In this document: in pieces, positions 8,507 through 63,515 of the stretch | Layout: every line of letters begins with the position of its first letter | Position numbering within the stretch: the stretch's first letter is position 1 | Assembly (NCBI GenBank): GCA_964390265.1 | Contig: CAYMHI010000003.1 | Coordinates: 1,332-65,331 of the forward strand | Direction: 5' to 3' | Source of the DNA: an uncultured Candidatus Saccharibacteria bacterium | GTDB lineage: Bacteria; Patescibacteriota; Saccharimonadia; CAILAD01; BJGX01 | Length of the DNA stretch: 64,000 nucleotides | The notes under the pieces: model-generated | The model's database searches: none | The model's input: only the letters and a program-made list of their open reading frames with translations | What the model was told of the DNA's origin: nothing | Position numbers and translations under genes: made by a program

Positions 8507-8773
8507 ATGTCTGAGCTTAGTGCTACGGAGCTAGAACTAGCCATACTTGATCGCGAAATAGCCGAGCTCGAAAGTCGCATACGCGGGTTAAGAGGGAGTT
8601 ACCGGCTTGTATCTATGTATAGCTCAAATCGAGGCATACTAAATCGCCTCCACAACCAACAACAGCTGGCCGAGATCAGCAAACAAATCAGACCTCTGCA
8701 AGAGCAGCTCACGCATAAACAACGCAGAAAAGCGATGATAGAAGAGATCGGCGCCGAGTATAGGGCCCAGTAG
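8507..8773 (+). CDS. Small hypothetical protein (88 aa), predicted coiled-coil, GC-shifted
   Basis: ORF track; heptad-like ELELAILDREIAELESRIRGL; followed by a strong hairpin terminator. Confidence 0.35.
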   Translation: MSELSATELELAILDREIAELESRIRGLRGSYRLVSMYSSNRGILNRLHNQQQLAEISKQIRPLQEQLTHKQRRKAMIEEIGAEYRAQ

Positions 8774-8813
8774 AAACTTATTATTATTATTACCGATCCG
8801 ACGATATCAGCCA

Positions 8814-8846
8814 GCTTCGTACAATCCTGTACGAAGCATTTCTTTA
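8814..8846 (+). terminator. Rho-independent terminator (9-bp perfect stem GCTTCGTAC / GTACGAAGC, 6-nt loop, T-rich tail)
   Basis: Read directly from the sequence downstream of the 8507..8773 ORF. Confidence 0.6.
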
Positions 8847-8923
8847 CAAGCTGATTTGAAGGTAGTATCATCTTAATCATTCATCGCAAAGCGCGATTTG
8901 TACCTAACTTAAAGGATATTGTA

Positions 8924-9202
8924 ATGAGCCAAGACTTTACAGCAACTCAGACCAATACCTACACACAAACGTGGATTGCAGAGCTCGAGGCTGATACTGA
9001 ACGTCTCATGAGTAAAAGACAAAAACTTGAGGTTCGATATGATCGTTGCGAGCCAGGAACGCTATATAGCGACTGGCGAGGATGGATAAAGCGACGTAGA
9101 TGCAACCGCCTGCGTCGTCGCATTCTTCGGCTCGACAAAGCCATCGGTAGAAAGGGCGATGCCGTTACTCAACTCAAACTCAACGAAGTAGGGAGGCTAT
9201 GA
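8924..9202 (+). CDS. Small hypothetical protein (92 aa), highly basic Arg-rich C-terminal half (RRRCNRLRRRILRL)
   Basis: ORF track; RBS-like AAAGGA upstream; no recognisable domain. Confidence 0.3.
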   Translation: MSQDFTATQTNTYTQTWIAELEADTERLMSKRQKLEVRYDRCEPGTLYSDWRGWIKRRRCNRLRRRILRLDKAIGRKGDAVTQLKLNEVGRL

Positions 9203-9206
9203 GATA

Positions 9207-9476
9207 ATGCCCACACTTGGTGAACTACAGGCAGAATTTAATTCATTGCAGCTTGAAGTATTGCAAAATCTAAACCATATGGCTTCTCGTGGCGGACGAG
9301 GCATACAATCTGCACAAGCCGAAGCTAACAATAGAACACTTTTTGAGAAGATGGTAGCGATTAATGATCAAATTCGAGTACATCCATCTGGAACGTGGCG
9401 AGATATCAAGCGCCAAGAAAAAGCACATCGCTTAGACCGGTTAACCGAGCATCGACGAGCACGTGACCAATTATAA
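9207..9476 (+). CDS. Small hypothetical protein (89 aa), charged/helical
   Basis: ORF track; starts 4 nt after the preceding ORF, suggesting an operon. Confidence 0.3.
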   Translation: MPTLGELQAEFNSLQLEVLQNLNHMASRGGRGIQSAQAEANNRTLFEKMVAINDQIRVHPSGTWRDIKRQEKAHRLDRLTEHRRARDQL

Positions 9477-9580
9477 CGTAATGTCCTCATTAGTTTATGG
9501 GGATTTTTTATTATTTATGCAAAATAATAAGTTTATACCGCTCCATGCTAGCAATGTGTAAAAAAGTCCGTTAATATGAA

Positions 9581-9616
9581 AAGCAGACCTGCCGTACGAA
9601 TCGAACAGATCTGCTT
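9581..9616. repeat. Imperfect hairpin (AAGCAGAcctg ... cagaTCTGCTT) within the structured intergenic region
   Basis: 7-bp perfect plus 3 of 4 extended inverted repeat with a 14-nt loop, seen in the sequence. Confidence 0.45.
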
Positions 9617-9687
9617 ATCACACCCTTTCATACCCCCAAAGAATTGGGATTTGTCAGTCTCATAATAAATAATTAGACCGTGGTAAT

Positions 9688-9771
9688 GAAAGGGAGTAAT
9701 CTGCTAGCGAGAATCTAAAAGGAGGGTGAGTTTTAGACATTGCCTCGACTAGCAGATTACTCCCTTTAATC
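9688..9771. repeat. Near-perfect 23-bp inverted repeat (GAAAGGGAGTAATCTGCTAGCGAG / CTCGaCTAGCAGATTACTCCCTTT). The 37-nt loop itself contains a 7-bp inner inverted repeat (TCTAAAA/TTTTAGA).
   Basis: Seen directly in the sequence; not followed by a T-run on either strand. Confidence 0.6.
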
Positions 9772-9896
9772 ATAAAGAGCTTAAATCTATTAAGTTTTTA
9801 ATCCGACAAGTATTGTATCACGCTAGTGCTTATTTGTCAATACTATTTTCTCCATATTATTTATTACTCTTATGGTCTATAGATAAGCACAGTTTT

Positions 9897-10748
9897 ATGA
9901 ATATACAAGAATTATCATATAATAGCAATAGTTATCCGCAGCTTTTAAGCAACATATCATCACCGCCCAAAAAACTCTACTGCTTAGGGCAAATTCCTGA
10001 CTTACCTATGGTGGCAATTGTTGGTAGCCGTAAACCAAGTAATTATGGCGAACAAATGACCCACCAATTAGCCTACGACCTCGCCAGTGCTGGAATGTGC
10101 ATAGTAAGTGGCTTAGCCTACGGCGTAGATGCAATTGCGCACCGTGCCGCACTTGAGGCTGGTGGAAAAGTAGTGGCCGTACTGGGCACACCACTAGACA
10201 CTATCTACCCAGCAGCCAATAGAGATCTCGCCAAAAAAATACTTGGCCATGGAGGAGCCATATTAAGTGAATACGAGGTAGGTACCAATACTCAACGATT
10301 TAATTTTCCGGCTCGCAATAGAATAATAGCTGGCTTAAGCTTAGCCACCATTATCACCGAGGCTAATGCCCAGAGCGGCAGCCTTATAACCGCTAATTTT
10401 GCCATCACTAACGATAGGTTGGTAATGGCCGTACCAGGTAACCTCACCAGCCCACGAAGTGCTGGGCCCAATAATCTCATTAAACTAGGCGCCAAACTAA
10501 TTACCGATGCCACCGATGTGCTAGCCGAACTAGAACTCAAAAGTAGTGTATTGCAGGCCAAAAAGATTGCTCCCGCTAGTAAAGAGGAGGCTATAGTATC
10601 CGAACTAATCGCCGCAGGGCATAACAACACTCATACCATGATAGAAAATAGTGAGTTTGATGCCGCCCGGCTTGCACATGTTCTTAGCCTAATGGAGATT
10701 ACTGGCAAGATACGTAATCTTGGTGCCGGACAGTGGATGTTGAATTAA
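9897..10748 (+). CDS. dprA: DNA processing protein DprA (Smf), Rossmann-like DNA-binding domain
   Basis: AIVGSRKPSNYGEQ...GLAYGVDAIAHRAALEAGGKVVAVLGTPLD signature. Start placed at the internal ATG (MNIQEL...) rather than the ORF-track start 9813, because the first 28 codons are hydrophobic and poorly DprA-like. Confidence 0.7.
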   Translation: MNIQELSYNSNSYPQLLSNISSPPKKLYCLGQIPDLPMVAIVGSRKPSNYGEQMTHQLAYDLASAGMCIVSGLAYGVDAIAHRAALEAGGKVVAVLGTPLDTIYPAANRDLAKKILGHGGAILSEYEVGTNTQRFNFPARNRIIAGLSLATIITEANAQSGSLITANFAITNDRLVMAVPGNLTSPRSAGPNNLIKLGAKLITDATDVLAELELKSSVLQAKKIAPASKEEAIVSELIAAGHNNTHTMIENSEFDAARLAHVLSLMEITGKIRNLGAGQWMLN

Positions 10749-26083: not shown

Positions 26084-26115
26084 AATTAATAGGTTTATTT
26101 TAACAAATTTACGGC

Positions 26116-27846
26116 TTAATTACTACTGGGGGGTATCTGATAATAATTAAATAGTTCTTTGGCCACTACAGCGAAGGCTGGCACAGCAGTCTTCTCGGCA
26201 AAGCCCTCTACCTTGGGGTAATCTACTCGTACCAACATTACAAATCGGGGGTCTTCAACCGGTGCAAAACCCACAAAACTACCGATGTTTTTGTTTTCTT
26301 CATAACCCTTACCATCAGCTCTTGGTACCTGGGCAGTACCGGTTTTTCCGGCGATCTTATAGCCTTTCATTTTGGTAAGATAACCAGACCCACGCTCGAC
26401 TACTTGGGTCATTATCTCGGCCAATTGAGATGCCGATGTGGCACTAATGACATTTCTTACCACCTCGGTCTTTGTTGGCTTAACTACTTGATCATTTGAC
26501 ACTTCTCCGGCCAATATATGCGGCTTAACAAGGTTGCCACTATTGGCAATGGCACCCACGGCGGCCACTAACTGCACAGAGTTGACTGAGATGCCTTGCC
26601 CAAAGCTCATATTAGCGTAATCAATATCTGAGCTCGTAACAGGCTTTACCTTGCTGCTTACCTCTCCAGCCTGTTCTATGCCTGTAACTTTCCCGAATCC
26701 AAACTTCTCTATATAGTCGTGTAATACCTGTTTACTCGTTGGGGTAATATTTTTAGGGTCACTGCCGAGCATTTGCAGCACAAACACTACGCCGGTATTT
26801 AGAGACTTCTGAATTACATCTGTCATAGTTTGGTAGCCATACTTATGATTTTCGGCGTTTTTGATAGTCTTACCACTTATGGTTAACTCACCAGTGTCAT
26901 TATAGGTAGTCTGGGGTGTTACCTTACCACTATCTAATCCGGCAGCCATAGTTATTACTTTAAACCCACTACCCGGCTCAAACAGGCTCGACGTAGCCTT
27001 GTTAGAAAAAACTGAGTAGTCTTTTACGTCTCGAAAATTATTGGGGTCAAAATCGGGATAGTTTACCAAAGCTTTGATTTCGCCGGTTTTGACATCCATT
27101 ACGATAATACTACCAGAAGATGCCTTATTGGTTTCAACAGCCGACTTTATGGCGTCACGTGCGACGTTTTGTATGCCTCTATCAAGGGTGAGTAGATAGT
27201 TCTTACCGTTTTGCGGTTCTATTAAAGTATTTTCGGTGCTATTTATAGGTATTCCTAGTGCGTCGGTAATGGTGTTGTACTGACCTTTTTGACCGCTTAA
27301 ACCATCGTCGTTGAACTGCTCAAAACCATACTGACCCTTTCCGTCATCATTGACGTAACCCAAAACATGCGAAAACAATGCGCTCTCGGGATAATAACGG
27401 CTAGCCCGCTGCTGTAAAATAACACCCGCTAGCGACATAGCTTTAATCTTTTCGGCTTGGTCTGAACTAATATTTTTGGACAACTCAACATAGCGTCCTG
27501 ACCTGGTAAGCTTAGATTTAATATCATCTTCAGACTGCAACGTAATTGAGCTAAGTTTTTGGGCCGTAGAGTCGGCATTGGTGATAAATTTAGGATCGAC
27601 CGCTAGCGTATAGACTTGTGTGTTAAGGGCAATAGGTACCAAGCCTTGCGACTCTTTTAAATACACCGTTCCTCGGTTGGCGGGGATTTCGAATTTACGA
27701 GATTGTTGTTCGCTAGCTTTGGCGGCATAATCTTTGCCACGAATGGCTTGTACATAAAAAAGGCGCCCCAGCGCTATCAGCCAAAGTGCGATTAATACAG
27801 CAGCAATAGCATAAAGCCGCCAGTGTTCACGATTACTAGAAAGCAT
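26116..27846 (-). CDS. ftsI: Penicillin-binding protein (class B transpeptidase, FtsI/PBP2-like)
   Basis: N-terminal TM; SxxK (SGFK), SxN (SLN), KTG(T) (KTGTAQV). Confidence 0.75.
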   Translation of the reverse strand: MLSSNREHWRLYAIAAVLIALWLIALGRLFYVQAIRGKDYAAKASEQQSRKFEIPANRGTVYLKESQGLVPIALNTQVYTLAVDPKFITNADSTAQKLSSITLQSEDDIKSKLTRSGRYVELSKNISSDQAEKIKAMSLAGVILQQRASRYYPESALFSHVLGYVNDDGKGQYGFEQFNDDGLSGQKGQYNTITDALGIPINSTENTLIEPQNGKNYLLTLDRGIQNVARDAIKSAVETNKASSGSIIVMDVKTGEIKALVNYPDFDPNNFRDVKDYSVFSNKATSSLFEPGSGFKVITMAAGLDSGKVTPQTTYNDTGELTISGKTIKNAENHKYGYQTMTDVIQKSLNTGVVFVLQMLGSDPKNITPTSKQVLHDYIEKFGFGKVTGIEQAGEVSSKVKPVTSSDIDYANMSFGQGISVNSVQLVAAVGAIANSGNLVKPHILAGEVSNDQVVKPTKTEVVRNVISATSASQLAEIMTQVVERGSGYLTKMKGYKIAGKTGTAQVPRADGKGYEENKNIGSFVGFAPVEDPRFVMLVRVDYPKVEGFAEKTAVPAFAVVAKELFNYYQIPPSSN

Positions 27847-30703: not shown

Positions 30704-31416
30704 GACTGCCACTCTTTATAGAGCGTGTAGTCTACATTACTTTGGCCGCCATCAGCAAATATAACAGCACCATTTATATAGCTTGATTGCTCTGATAATA
30801 AAAATGTCACTATGTTTGCTATCTCTTGTGGGGTTCCAATGCGACCTAGTGGAGTAATTTCTTCAGCCGCCTTCTTGATAGTATCATTTTCTGGTCCCAT
30901 ATCTGTATCTATCCAACCAGGAGCAATTGCATTTACTCTTATTCCCTTGTAGCCAAGCACATTACCGAGGCTCTTGGTAAGACTAATAAGCCCAGACTTT
31001 GCTGCAGAGTACGCAAAACCTACAAATGCTCCTGTGGCAGCATCGTTACTAACTATATTTACAATTGCACTACCTTTTTCCATATTTTTGCTTAATGCTT
31101 CAACTACAATGTAAGGTGCGGTTAGCATAATTTCAATAGACTTATCCCACTTATCTAAGTCAAAAAGCTCTATACTTTCTTCTTCGAACAAACCCGCACA
31201 GTTCACAATATAATCAAATTTTACTGTACTCAATTCCTTGACTAAACTTAGTGTTTGATCCCTATTTGACAGGTCTACTCGACGATAAAGAATTTCTTCA
31301 TTTTTGGGTTTTGTAGTATTGTATGTACCCACTACTTCAATACCATCAGAAATGAGTTTTCTAGCTACAGCAAGTCCTATACCTTTTGACGCCCCTGAGA
31401 CAAAAGCTCTTTTCAT
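30700..31416 (-). CDS. Short-chain dehydrogenase/reductase (SDR) family oxidoreductase
   Basis: N-terminal SGASKGIGLAVARKL cofactor-binding motif; Y-x3-K (YSAAK). Confidence 0.7.
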   Translation of the reverse strand: MKRAFVSGASKGIGLAVARKLISDGIEVVGTYNTTKPKNEEILYRRVDLSNRDQTLSLVKELSTVKFDYIVNCAGLFEEESIELFDLDKWDKSIEIMLTAPYIVVEALSKNMEKGSAIVNIVSNDAATGAFVGFAYSAAKSGLISLTKSLGNVLGYKGIRVNAIAPGWIDTDMGPENDTIKKAAEEITPLGRIGTPQEIANIVTFLLSEQSSYINGAVIFADGGQSNVDYTLYKEWQS

Positions 31417-32774
31417 TTCAACTTATCGCCTAAATAGCTTTTTAGCTCAGTTATCTTAATCCGATCCTGCTTCATACTATCTCGCTCTCTAACCGTAACA
31501 GCCTGGTCTTCTAGGCTTTCAAAATCTACCGTAACACAATATGGTGTACCTATCTCGTCTTGGCGGCGGTAGCGCTTACCTATTGATTGGGTTTCGTCAT
31601 ACTCAACGTTGTAATCACCCGCTACATTCTTAAACACATCTCGAGACAAATCTGTCAGTTCAGATTTTTTACTGAGTGGCAAAATGGCAACTTTGACAGG
31701 CGCCAAATCGACCGGAAGGCGCAATACTACCCGCTCCTCATTACCGACTTTCTCGGTAGTGTAAGCATCGAGCAAAACCGCCATAAACAACCGCTCTACC
31801 CCCACTGAAGGTTCAATAACATAAGGTACAATACTCTCGCCACTCTCTTCATCAAAATAACTCAAATCTTTTCCAGACGCCTTCATGTGGCTTTTAAGAT
31901 CGTGGTCGGTACGATTAGCAATTCCGTAAAGTTCTTTAAACCCAAATGGATATTTGTATTGAATATCACTGCTGGCCTTGGCATAGTGGGCACGCTCGTC
32001 TTCACTGTGTTCATGCCATTTAAGATTATCGGCTTTAATGCCCAGACTCTGTACCCATTTGAGACAATCTTTCTTCCAAAACTCAAACCATTTTTCGGCT
32101 TCATCAGGGCGGGTAAAAATTTCAAGTTCCATCTGGCTAAATTCTCTCACTCTAAAAATAAAATCCCCAGGAGTAATCTCATTACGAAAGGCCTTACCTA
32201 TTTGAGCAATACCAAATGGTAGTTTCTTGCGTGCTGTTTCGCGCACCAAGTCGTATTGTGCGAAAATTCCACCAGCGGTTTCGGGTCGTAAGTATGTAGT
32301 GGCAGCATCGTCTTCTACCGGGCCCACGAAGGTCTTAAACATCATCTGAAAATTCCGTGGTTCAGTAAGAGTACCTTTTTTGCCACAACTCGGGCAAGCT
32401 TTGTTTATAATTTCAGCATTTAACTTGTTAAGATCGCTAGTATCCATATCGGCAACATGATCGGCGCGAAATCGATGTTTGCAGCTTTTACAATCAACCA
32501 TAGGATCTACAAAAGTATCGACATGACCGCTAGCCTGCCAAAGTTTGGGGTTTTGAATAATTGCAGAGTTTAGACCAATGATATTAAAGTTGCTGTATAC
32601 AAAGTGACGCCACCAAGACGCTTTAATGTTGTTGGCCAGTTCGCTACCATATGGCCCAAAATCGTAAAATCCAGATAGACCACCGTAAATTTCGCTGGCC
32701 TGAAATACAAAACCGCGCCTTTTACAAAAACTTACTAGTTCTTCCATACTGATATTCGATGATATTTTTTCCAT
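31413..32774 (-). CDS. glyQS: Glycine--tRNA ligase (alpha2 dimeric type)
   Basis: N-terminus ...CKRRGFVFQASEIYGGLSGFYDFGPYG characteristic of GlyRS; 453 aa. Confidence 0.8.
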   Translation of the reverse strand: MEKISSNISMEELVSFCKRRGFVFQASEIYGGLSGFYDFGPYGSELANNIKASWWRHFVYSNFNIIGLNSAIIQNPKLWQASGHVDTFVDPMVDCKSCKHRFRADHVADMDTSDLNKLNAEIINKACPSCGKKGTLTEPRNFQMMFKTFVGPVEDDAATTYLRPETAGGIFAQYDLVRETARKKLPFGIAQIGKAFRNEITPGDFIFRVREFSQMELEIFTRPDEAEKWFEFWKKDCLKWVQSLGIKADNLKWHEHSEDERAHYAKASSDIQYKYPFGFKELYGIANRTDHDLKSHMKASGKDLSYFDEESGESIVPYVIEPSVGVERLFMAVLLDAYTTEKVGNEERVVLRLPVDLAPVKVAILPLSKKSELTDLSRDVFKNVAGDYNVEYDETQSIGKRYRRQDEIGTPYCVTVDFESLEDQAVTVRERDSMKQDRIKITELKSYLGDKLK

Positions 32775-44835: not shown

Positions 44836-44910
44836 TGGGGTGTGGCCAAGTGGTAAGGCAACGGCTTTTGGTGCCGTCATTCGGGGGTTCGAATCCCTCC
44901 ACCCCAGCCA
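44836..44910 (+). tRNA. tRNA-Gln (anticodon UUG), CCA encoded
   Basis: Cloverleaf folded by hand: acceptor UGGGGUG/CACCCCA, D-arm GCC-AAGUGGUAA-GGC, anticodon stem ACGGC/GCCGU with loop UUUUGGU, T-arm GGGGG-UUCGAAU-CCCUC, discriminator G plus CCA. Confidence 0.8.
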
Positions 44911-62084: not shown

Positions 62085-62126
62085 AAGTTACTTCCTCTCC
62101 TTTATTTAATGTGCGTGATTAACCAA

Positions 62127-62154
62127 CAAAAAAATCTTTGGAGATTCCAAAGAT
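62127..62154 (-). terminator. Hairpin (9-bp perfect stem ATCTTTGGA/TCCAAAGAT) followed on the minus strand by a U7 run. Candidate glyA terminator and/or rplJ leader attenuator.
   Basis: Seen in the sequence between the glyA stop and the rplJ start. Confidence 0.5.
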
Positions 62155-62267
62155 AGCTTTAAAAAGTATTTTTGCCTCGTGTAGCAAATTAAGTCTTAAT
62201 AAAATGACTGCTACAGTCTTTGGTAATCGAGTAATATTGTATCAAAAAGTTATAGATTGGTCAAGCA

Positions 62268-63515
62268 CTAATAATACCAGTGTAGTGAGTTTACAATATC
62301 GACAACAGTCTTATTGGCTTTTGAGTTTTCTATCTCATTTGCCAGAATATTGCCGATTAACTCCCCCAAATCTTCAGCTTGCTGGGTGCTAATACCTCGC
62401 GAAGTCAATGCTGCCATGCCTAGACGCAAGCCACCCGGTCGCCAAGGCGACTTAGTATCGTTTGGTATGGCATTACGATTAGTTACAATACCCACTTCTT
62501 CAAGTTGAGTTTGTAGCTCTAAACTATCAATATCATCTGGCACTTTTGCCAGGCAAAGATGATTTTGAGTGGGTGACACCATCTCTACACCAGTTTTTAC
62601 TAGGCCGTTTTCAAGTGCCTTGGTATTGGCAATTACCTGCTTGGCATAATCTTCAAATGGCTTTTTATCGGGATACTCGTCATCACCCAGTACCTCTAGT
62701 AGACTCTGACCAACAGCAGCTATCTGATTTAGGTGTGGCCCTCCACTGGTGCCAGGAAAAATAGTTTTATTGATAGCTGGCATATATTCTTGTTTGGCAA
62801 AAATAAGTGCTGATCGAGGTCCACGTAAGGTTTTGTGGGTGGTAGTGGTTACGAAATCAGCCCCTTCGCCGTCTTTTTTGAATGGGCTATCATGCAGACC
62901 AGCCGCTACCAGACCAGCAATATGAGAAATATCTGCCATAACAAGCGAACCAGTATCGTGAGCCAGTTTACAAAGTTTGGCAAACTCATATTTTCGAGGG
63001 TAAGAGCTAAAACCGATTATCGTTAGTCGTGGCTTGTGCTCTTTGAGCTTGGCTACAAAATCGGCCTCGTCAATGCCGGAACCGTGTTTTCTACTTAGCA
63101 AACTATAGTTGGCATACTTAAAAAACTTTAACCAATTACTGGTAGCATGCATGTGACTTAAGTGCCCACCGCTGGCGAGATTAAGGCTCAAGACTGTATC
63201 GCCAGGTTCTAAAACTGTAAGATACACCGTAGCATTGGCTGGGCTACCAGATAGCGGCTGAACGTTTATGCCATACTCGCCAGTGCTGTCAAAAACCTCT
63301 AGAGCTTTTTGACAAACAAATTCTTCTAGCGTATCGGAATTTACGTTACCGCCATAATAACGTTTACCGGGGTACCCCTCGGCATACTTGTCGTTCCAAA
63401 GACTTCCTAACAACCCTAAGGTCTTGGGGCTAGGATAATTTTCAGCGGCAATAAGATTGAGGGTACTCTTTTGGCGTTCTGTTTCGGTTTGAGTGAGTTG
63501 AAAAATTCTATTCAT
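62268..63515 (-). CDS. glyA: Serine hydroxymethyltransferase
   Basis: LIAAENYPSPKTLGLLGS, PLP-lysine region TTTTHKTLRGPRS. Confidence 0.85.
   Translation of the reverse strand: MNRIFQLTQTETERQKSTLNLIAAENYPSPKTLGLLGSLWNDKYAEGYPGKRYYGGNVNSDTLEEFVCQKALEVFDSTGEYGINVQPLSGSPANATVYLTVLEPGDTVLSLNLASGGHLSHMHATSNWLKFFKYANYSLLSRKHGSGIDEADFVAKLKEHKPRLTIIGFSSYPRKYEFAKLCKLAHDTGSLVMADISHIAGLVAAGLHDSPFKKDGEGADFVTTTTHKTLRGPRSALIFAKQEYMPAINKTIFPGTSGGPHLNQIAAVGQSLLEVLGDDEYPDKKPFEDYAKQVIANTKALENGLVKTGVEMVSPTQNHLCLAKVPDDIDSLELQTQLEEVGIVTNRNAIPNDTKSPWRPGGLRLGMAALTSRGISTQQAEDLGELIGNILANEIENSKANKTVVDIVNSLHWYY

Follow-up and report, generated by a model that had tools for sequence, protein, structure and literature searches.

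A long inverted repeat upstream of dprA in Saccharibacteria most probably forms a stem of a structured small RNA

A long inverted repeat located upstream of dprA in a Saccharibacteria chromosome is, in all probability, stem P1 of a stand-alone structured small RNA (sRNA) gene. This gene would be transcribed from the minus strand over about 230 nt, from ~9805 to ~9575 (positions are those of the window, i.e. the whole 64-kb stretch of Saccharibacteria (Patescibacteria) chromosome that was analyzed), and it is single-copy, Saccharibacteria-wide and fixed between pth and dprA. The RNA is a new family that Rfam 15 does not contain and that occurs Saccharibacteria-wide in our sample. The full explanation that we prefer, in which the sRNA gene is combined with a trans-acting mechanism based on its apical loop, is held with much less assurance, and we lean only slightly towards it.

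Saccharibacteria are ultra-small epibionts whose genomes, of ~1 Mb, are roughly 94% coding. In the window, the order of genes is D-Ala-D-Ala carboxypeptidase, der, pth, three small ORFs, a 420-nt gap (9477-9896), dprA and glmS. The deposited dprA model (311 aa) has a TTG start at 9813 and runs through the RNA promoter, an overlap that matters for annotation. All dprA relatives are ~283 aa long and start at an ATG equivalent to 9897; the 311-aa model is thus probably a mis-called, over-extended start. As dprA starts at the ATG at 9897, the non-coding gap extends from 9477 to 9896, and not from 9477 to 9812 as an earlier note on this DNA had it. At the other end of the gap, immediately past the stop codon of the small ORF 9207-9476, a plus-strand terminator-like hairpin followed by a T run occupies positions 9483-9514; this is the sole terminator-like site listed by our scan in 9200-10100.

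The arms of the inverted repeat, GAAAGGGAGTAATCTGCTAGCGAG (9688-9711) and CTCGACTAGCAGATTACTCCCTTT (9744-9767), are entirely paired but for one bulged base, and a repeat search retrieved them as 22 nt at 95% complementarity (9686-9707 / 9749-9770). Nested in the repeat is an inner hairpin (TCTAAAA...TTTTAGA) with the loop GGAGGGTGAG at 9721-9730, and a second hairpin is located upstream, at 9577-9591 / 9606-9620 (15 nt, 87% in the repeat search). The earlier note had described these elements correctly, except that the spacing between the arms is 32 nt instead of 37 nt. A 20-nt arm probe, for which 0.00 chance matches are expected in the window, matched only the two arms, so that no further copy of the repeat was found within the 64 kb. 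Folding of both strands, a check proposed in the same note, gave far better folds than shuffled sequences for 9477-9898 (z = -5.7 for the plus strand and z = -7.0 for the minus strand), and the minus-strand transcript 9570-9806 reached z = -8.7.

Both hairpins had been said to lack a following U-run, and hence not to be simple terminators. This is true of the plus strand only. Read from the minus strand, the second hairpin precedes UUUUCAUAUU, and it is therefore an intrinsic (Rho-independent) terminator, which spans 9573-9620 and has the stem GCAGAUCUG/CAGGUCUGC (9614-9606 with 9591-9583). The 23-bp repeat differs from such terminators, as P1 is internal to the transcript and precedes UUUCAUUACC (minus strand) or UUUAAUCAUA (plus strand), without a U tract on either; the terminator scan lists none there. 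Every lineage has a G+C-rich hairpin and a U tract at the terminator site, with at least five different stem sequences, and one pair of the stem, a U-G wobble, would turn into a C-A mismatch on the plus strand. In the lineage of the window, the terminator loop (9583-9614) reads UUCGAUUCGUACGG, the first part of which resembles the T-loop of tRNA (GUUCGAUUC); this likeness is probably coincidental, because the loop is not conserved in other lineages.

At the opposite end of the unit, a promoter scan identified on the minus strand (9812-9840) a -35 hexamer TTGACA (9840-9835), a 17-nt spacer and an extended -10 element TGaTACAAT (9820-9812). The two hexamers (TTGACA-17-TACAAT, with the upstream TG) match 11 of 12 consensus positions, which points to a near-consensus promoter of the sigma-70 type that would fire divergently from dprA. 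Relatives keep both hexamers and the 17-nt spacing, while the sequence of the spacer varies in distant ones. From the position of the -10 element, transcription is predicted to start at ~9804-9805 and to produce first a 5' leader (9769-9805) whose length and sequence differ among relatives. The positions of promoter and terminator thus delimit a unit from ~9805 to ~9575, i.e. roughly 230 nt. Expression, transcript ends and abundance are all predictions from sequence signals, and these signals, a promoter and an intrinsic terminator on the same strand that are conserved in relatives, are those of a stand-alone bacterial sRNA gene. A coding gene was also considered: the only ORF across P1 (38 codons, minus strand) is interrupted in relatives by indels of 1-2 nt.

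Conservation was assessed in several sets of sequences. The first consists of contigs encoding DprA relatives (83-59% identity), all of which keep a gap of 360-445 nt upstream of dprA. Across these contigs, 9575-9770 and the promoter block align and the surroundings do not, even where the upstream neighbor is different. Secondly, a 19-nt loop motif was scanned against one genome per GTDB species and matched 38 contigs, 37 of them from Saccharibacteria/Patescibacteria, with one match per contig. A pattern match in Harrisonbacteria (locus L011) was a chance one, as it showed neither synteny nor a match to our covariance model. Finally, this model gave exactly one strong match in each of 40 genome- or synteny-derived loci, three of which had been fetched through DprA alone, and it matched 28 of 33 metagenome loci; the other five were chance pattern matches, without model match or synteny.

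In 68 of 68 loci, the RNA sits between pth and dprA, in antisense orientation to the two genes. DprA identity falls to 43%, while the RNA core remains 57-97% identical to that of the window. The RNA adjoins dprA in all 68 loci, with 154-232 nt between loop and dprA start, and gene insertions occur, as in the window, on the pth side of the RNA only, none being found between RNA and dprA. Copy number was counted per contig for the motif and per locus for the model. The single-copy statement has to be qualified for MAG JBIIIT01, in which the motif is present on two contigs (L018 and L022), one of them with the motif at the contig end; the two core sequences hardly differ, which points to assembly redundancy. 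As a constrained single-copy RNA is kept at one locus across DprA proteins only 43% identical, it likely has a basic role.

The region between pth and the 3' end of the RNA (8507-9476 in the window, with three small ORFs of unknown function) is an insertion hotspot. In most relatives pth abuts the RNA, and insertions were listed at loci L001, L005, L012, L019, L026, L033 and L044; that of L005 contains rubrerythrin-like and TrmB-like genes.

To follow base pairing among relatives, we used a MAFFT alignment of 37 distinct sequences that had not been fitted to any structure. RNAalifold predicted four helices (P1, P2, P3 and P4) on this alignment, with compensatory changes in 14 of 32 pairs. In a model of 36 pairs, pairing holds in 95.1% of cells and drops to 38-52% after the partners are shifted by 1-3 columns, and 88 cells are changed on both sides, against 27 in shuffles; none of 500 shuffles reached the observed covariation score. 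Changes on both sides affect 13 pairs of this model: four of 12 in P1 (97.7% paired), five of 10 in P2 (99.2%) and four of six in P3 (94%). Pairs are thus kept by compensatory change beyond both the shuffled and the slid controls, as expected of a structured RNA, and the idea of a structured sRNA, which the earlier note had put forward among others, is borne out by a covariation test set beforehand.

P1 is a long hairpin (9686-9770, minus strand) composed of a 12-bp covarying lower stem with invariant CUG/GCAG pairs, a CGAG/CUCG segment, an internal loop and an apical stem CUAAAA/UUUUAG. Its 3' strand runs directly into the 5' strand of P2 (9682-9694 with 9623-9634), which closes a three-way junction with P3 (9675-9680 with 9655-9660) and P4 (9644-9648 with 9635-9639), the whole junction domain covering 9623-9694. 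The alignment contains 46 invariant columns, among them paired positions and residues of the junction. When all column pairs were scanned, no pseudoknot was supported, as the scan returned only the known helices and a trivial CCUUU/AAAGG complementarity. An extension of P1, in which a 5' AAG(G)G would pair with CCUUU in competition with P2, was only partly supported: pair 12:90 is broken in 15 of the 37 sequences, pairs 7:95 and 8:94 covary weakly, and P2 is 99% paired. A conformational switch between this extension and P2 is possible under the structural model.

Pairing also indicates the strand. The 36 modelled pairs comprise 124 G-U and 15 A-C cells, which a plus-strand reading would reverse, and the strand is therefore fixed as minus. 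The covariance model likewise gives 207.8 bits on the minus strand and 38.4 bits on the plus strand.

Among unpaired elements, constraint is strongest in the apical motif of P1 (9719-9730, minus strand; AAAGGAGGGTGA on the plus strand), whose twelve bases include a 10-nt unpaired loop, CUCACCCUCC, at 9721-9730. This core, UCACCCUCCUUU, is invariant in 40 of 40 aligned sequences; as most members were retrieved with a loop-containing pattern, the invariance is unbiased only for the 11 of these 40 loci that were found by DprA synteny, independently of the pattern. The 3' tail of bacterial 16S rRNA is usually UCACCUCCUUU and reads ...GAUCACCUCCUUU... The loop core corresponds to this tail with one extra C, the comparison being with the general bacterial tail. 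It could therefore form the 8-bp duplex that the ribosome makes with AAAGGAGG.

We tentatively propose, from this likeness, that the RNA may act in trans through its invariant, exposed C/U-rich apical loop, which would pair with Shine-Dalgarno-like purine tracts (AAAGGAGG) in mRNAs. The RNA would then compete with ribosomes for these tracts, or block them, and the junction domain would serve to stabilise the RNA or to bind a protein. When the RNA is examined as an anti-Shine-Dalgarno-like sRNA of the RsaE or 6C type, an exposed invariant loop is predicted and no target was found in the sequences searched: the 64-kb window shows no enrichment of extended loop complements, and in 84 loci the only loop complement was the gene's own antisense, with none in flanking genes. 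A crude scan also found a Shine-Dalgarno-like motif (at least 4 nt) in only ~24 of 63 gene calls of the window. Many genes lack a Shine-Dalgarno motif and carry instead a TATAAT-like hexamer, 7-9 nt ahead of the ATG, for example upstream of 11304, 26115-27846 (minus strand), 31412-32774 (minus strand), 44964, 45802 and 62267-63515 (minus strand), which suggests that leaderless or near-leaderless mRNAs may be frequent in the window. The set of possible targets may thus be limited.

RsaE/RoxS of Bacillota and 6C RNA of Actinomycetota are Hfq-independent sRNAs with C-rich loops, their own promoter and an intrinsic terminator. The RNA described here likewise has a gene to itself, bounded by a promoter and an intrinsic terminator, and its C-rich loop, which is unpaired, could pair with G-rich Shine-Dalgarno regions. 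However, Rfam reveals no sequence or structure similarity to these RNAs, and ours is about twice their size, contains one long hairpin and a covarying three-way junction, and copies the anti-Shine-Dalgarno over 12 nt where they have short CCC motifs.

The invariant anti-Shine-Dalgarno-like loop provides a concrete hypothesis of translation control, testable where genetic tools now exist. According to a transcriptome study of TM7x, no small RNA has been validated in this organism (bioRxiv 10.1101/2022.03.25.485537), and only two ncRNAs were annotated by PGAP in a complete Saccharibacteria genome (PMC8830319). Our search of the literature for sRNAs or structured RNAs of Saccharibacteria or Patescibacteria retrieved no account of this RNA.

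Among other explanations, the strongest keeps the same minus-strand RNA and makes it a protein-binding or decoy RNA, and not a base-pairing regulator. It might imitate the 16S 3' tail and titrate a factor that recognises this tail, or it might be a ribonucleoprotein scaffold. Contacts would be made by the invariant CUG/GCAG pairs of P1 and by the nucleotides of the junction. A 12-nt motif invariant over deep divergence, together with conserved nucleotides in the junction, is a pattern more usual in RNAs that bind conserved proteins or machinery than in base-pairing sRNAs, and the 46 invariant columns, with their paired positions and junction residues, fit such a role, as does the failure to find an mRNA target in the window or the 84 loci. 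In addition, well-folded abundant orphan RNAs do exist, such as the raiA motif RNA (PMC10861870). However, there is no linked partner protein gene, the flanking genes being ordinary housekeeping ones, and no likeness to any ribonucleoprotein RNA in Rfam. We therefore treat protein binding as a conjecture, nearly as likely as base pairing in trans because targets were not found, many genes look leaderless and the loop is extremely invariant. A bolder and distinctly less probable version is that of a phylum-wide, highly expressed mimic of the 16S anti-Shine-Dalgarno tail, which would titrate either Shine-Dalgarno-led mRNAs or a tail-recognising factor. In ultra-small epibiotic bacteria otherwise with almost no known riboregulation, such a mimic would set the balance between Shine-Dalgarno-dependent and leaderless translation.

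The raiA motif RNA (ModT) of Bacillota and Actinomycetota is an orphan, single-copy, independently transcribed and strongly conserved RNA of ~200 nt, with helices P1-P8, two pseudoknots and 51 conserved positions, and typically without terminator stems (PMC10861870). Like it, the present RNA is a single-copy conserved structured RNA beside a competence gene (usually comFC there, dprA here; PMC10861870). Unlike it, ours has four helices and a terminator, and no pseudoknot was detected; our sequences have no Rfam match to the raiA motif, whose architecture was taken from the same source.

A further alternative is that the RNA acts mainly in cis, to set or insulate dprA-topA expression through promoter competition or through degradation of duplex RNA formed with pth read-through. 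Such an effect is conceivable, as the strong promoter is back-to-back with the dprA promoter region (its -35 hexamer is ~57 nt from the dprA ATG) and the transcript is antisense to pth read-through. It would also explain the unbroken linkage to dprA, with the RNA beside this gene in all 68 loci and insertions restricted to the pth side. Nevertheless, action in cis requires neither a covarying three-way junction nor an invariant loop, and the linkage may be passive, since gene order is generally rigid in these small genomes. We thus consider action mainly in cis unlikely.

The strand evidence and the conserved promoter and terminators, taken together, exclude a leader of dprA. The earlier note had suggested a riboregulator in that leader; the RNA is on the opposite strand (124 G-U to 15 A-C cells; 207.8 and 38.4 bits), with a promoter and a terminator of its own, and its strand is opposite to dprA and pth in 68 of 68 loci, which is not the arrangement of a cis-leader or riboswitch. 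One may still imagine a plus-strand structured leader or riboregulator of dprA that shows AAAGGAGG in its loop as a Shine-Dalgarno or standby site, as the plus strand also folds well and carries upstream, in the closest lineages, a -35/-10-like pair (TAGCAA-17-TAATAT). This is very improbable: the 124 G-U cells would become C-A mismatches, the model scores 38 bits on that strand against 208 on the minus strand, the element is bracketed by a minus-strand promoter and terminator, and no conserved ORF follows the plus-strand Shine-Dalgarno-like motif among relatives. TAGCAA-17-TAATAT itself was rejected as a promoter, its spacing being lost in L010 and the L014 lineage.

Comparison with known families was conducted with the 4227 models of Rfam 15, at the gathering threshold for the whole window and at permissive E-values for the region and eight diverse members. 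For the region of the RNA and these eight members, only chance miRNA and snoRNA matches far below threshold were obtained, and the cmscan search that had been advised as a check therefore matched no family. ARAGORN detected no tRNA or tmRNA in the region. A housekeeping RNA (6S, SRP, RNase P or tmRNA) so divergent in this phylum as to escape the Rfam models would account for the strong promoter and the phylum-wide conservation; moreover, with just two ncRNAs annotated by PGAP in a complete Saccharibacteria genome (PMC8830319), annotation there may miss at least one of the usual RNAs. We nevertheless give this explanation very little credence. No Rfam match appeared at E-values up to 10 for the window region or up to 5 for the eight members, and ARAGORN reported no tmRNA. 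A hairpin and a three-way junction do not make a 6S-like rod with a central bubble, and the variable 5' leader does not pair with the 3' end as in 6S RNA. There is no GNRA-capped SRP helix 8, and the RNA is too short for RNase P RNA.

Finally, a DNA-level element (a MITE, the terminal repeat of a mobile element or a cruciform-forming recombination site), as the earlier note had envisaged from the near-perfect 23-bp inverted repeat, can practically be dismissed, since there is one copy per contig or locus at the same syntenic position in 68 loci, instead of the dispersed copies with terminal inverted repeats of a MITE (JBIIIT01, with L018 and L022, is the sole genome with a second contig), the changes in the covarying stems are compensatory and tolerant of G-U, indicating RNA pairing, and no recombinase or transposase is nearby.

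Several minor features of the region deserve mention. A conserved block, GTTTATACCGCTCCATGCTAGCAAT (9531-9556, strand not assigned), is located just past the RNA terminator, ~17 nt beyond it, and its core, GC(U/G)AGCAUG(G/A)AG in the RNA sense, is present in all lineages. The block stays beside the 3' end of the RNA even where inserted genes separate pth from it. In close lineages it is exactly 17 nt from TAATAT, as in a plus-strand promoter, a spacing that fails in other lineages.

Upstream of dprA, a conserved element at 9869-9886, CTTATG(G/C/T)T..ACAGAT, reads in the window as a 4-codon mini-ORF (MVYR, then stop). The ATG of this mini-ORF (9872) is lost in several lineages, and the element is more likely the -10 hexamer (TATGnT) and start region of the dprA promoter. 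Over the whole 64-kb window, Rfam and ARAGORN detected two features only, namely a ribosomal protein L10 leader at 62119-62241 (minus strand) and a tRNA-Gln(UUG) at 44836-44910 (plus strand).
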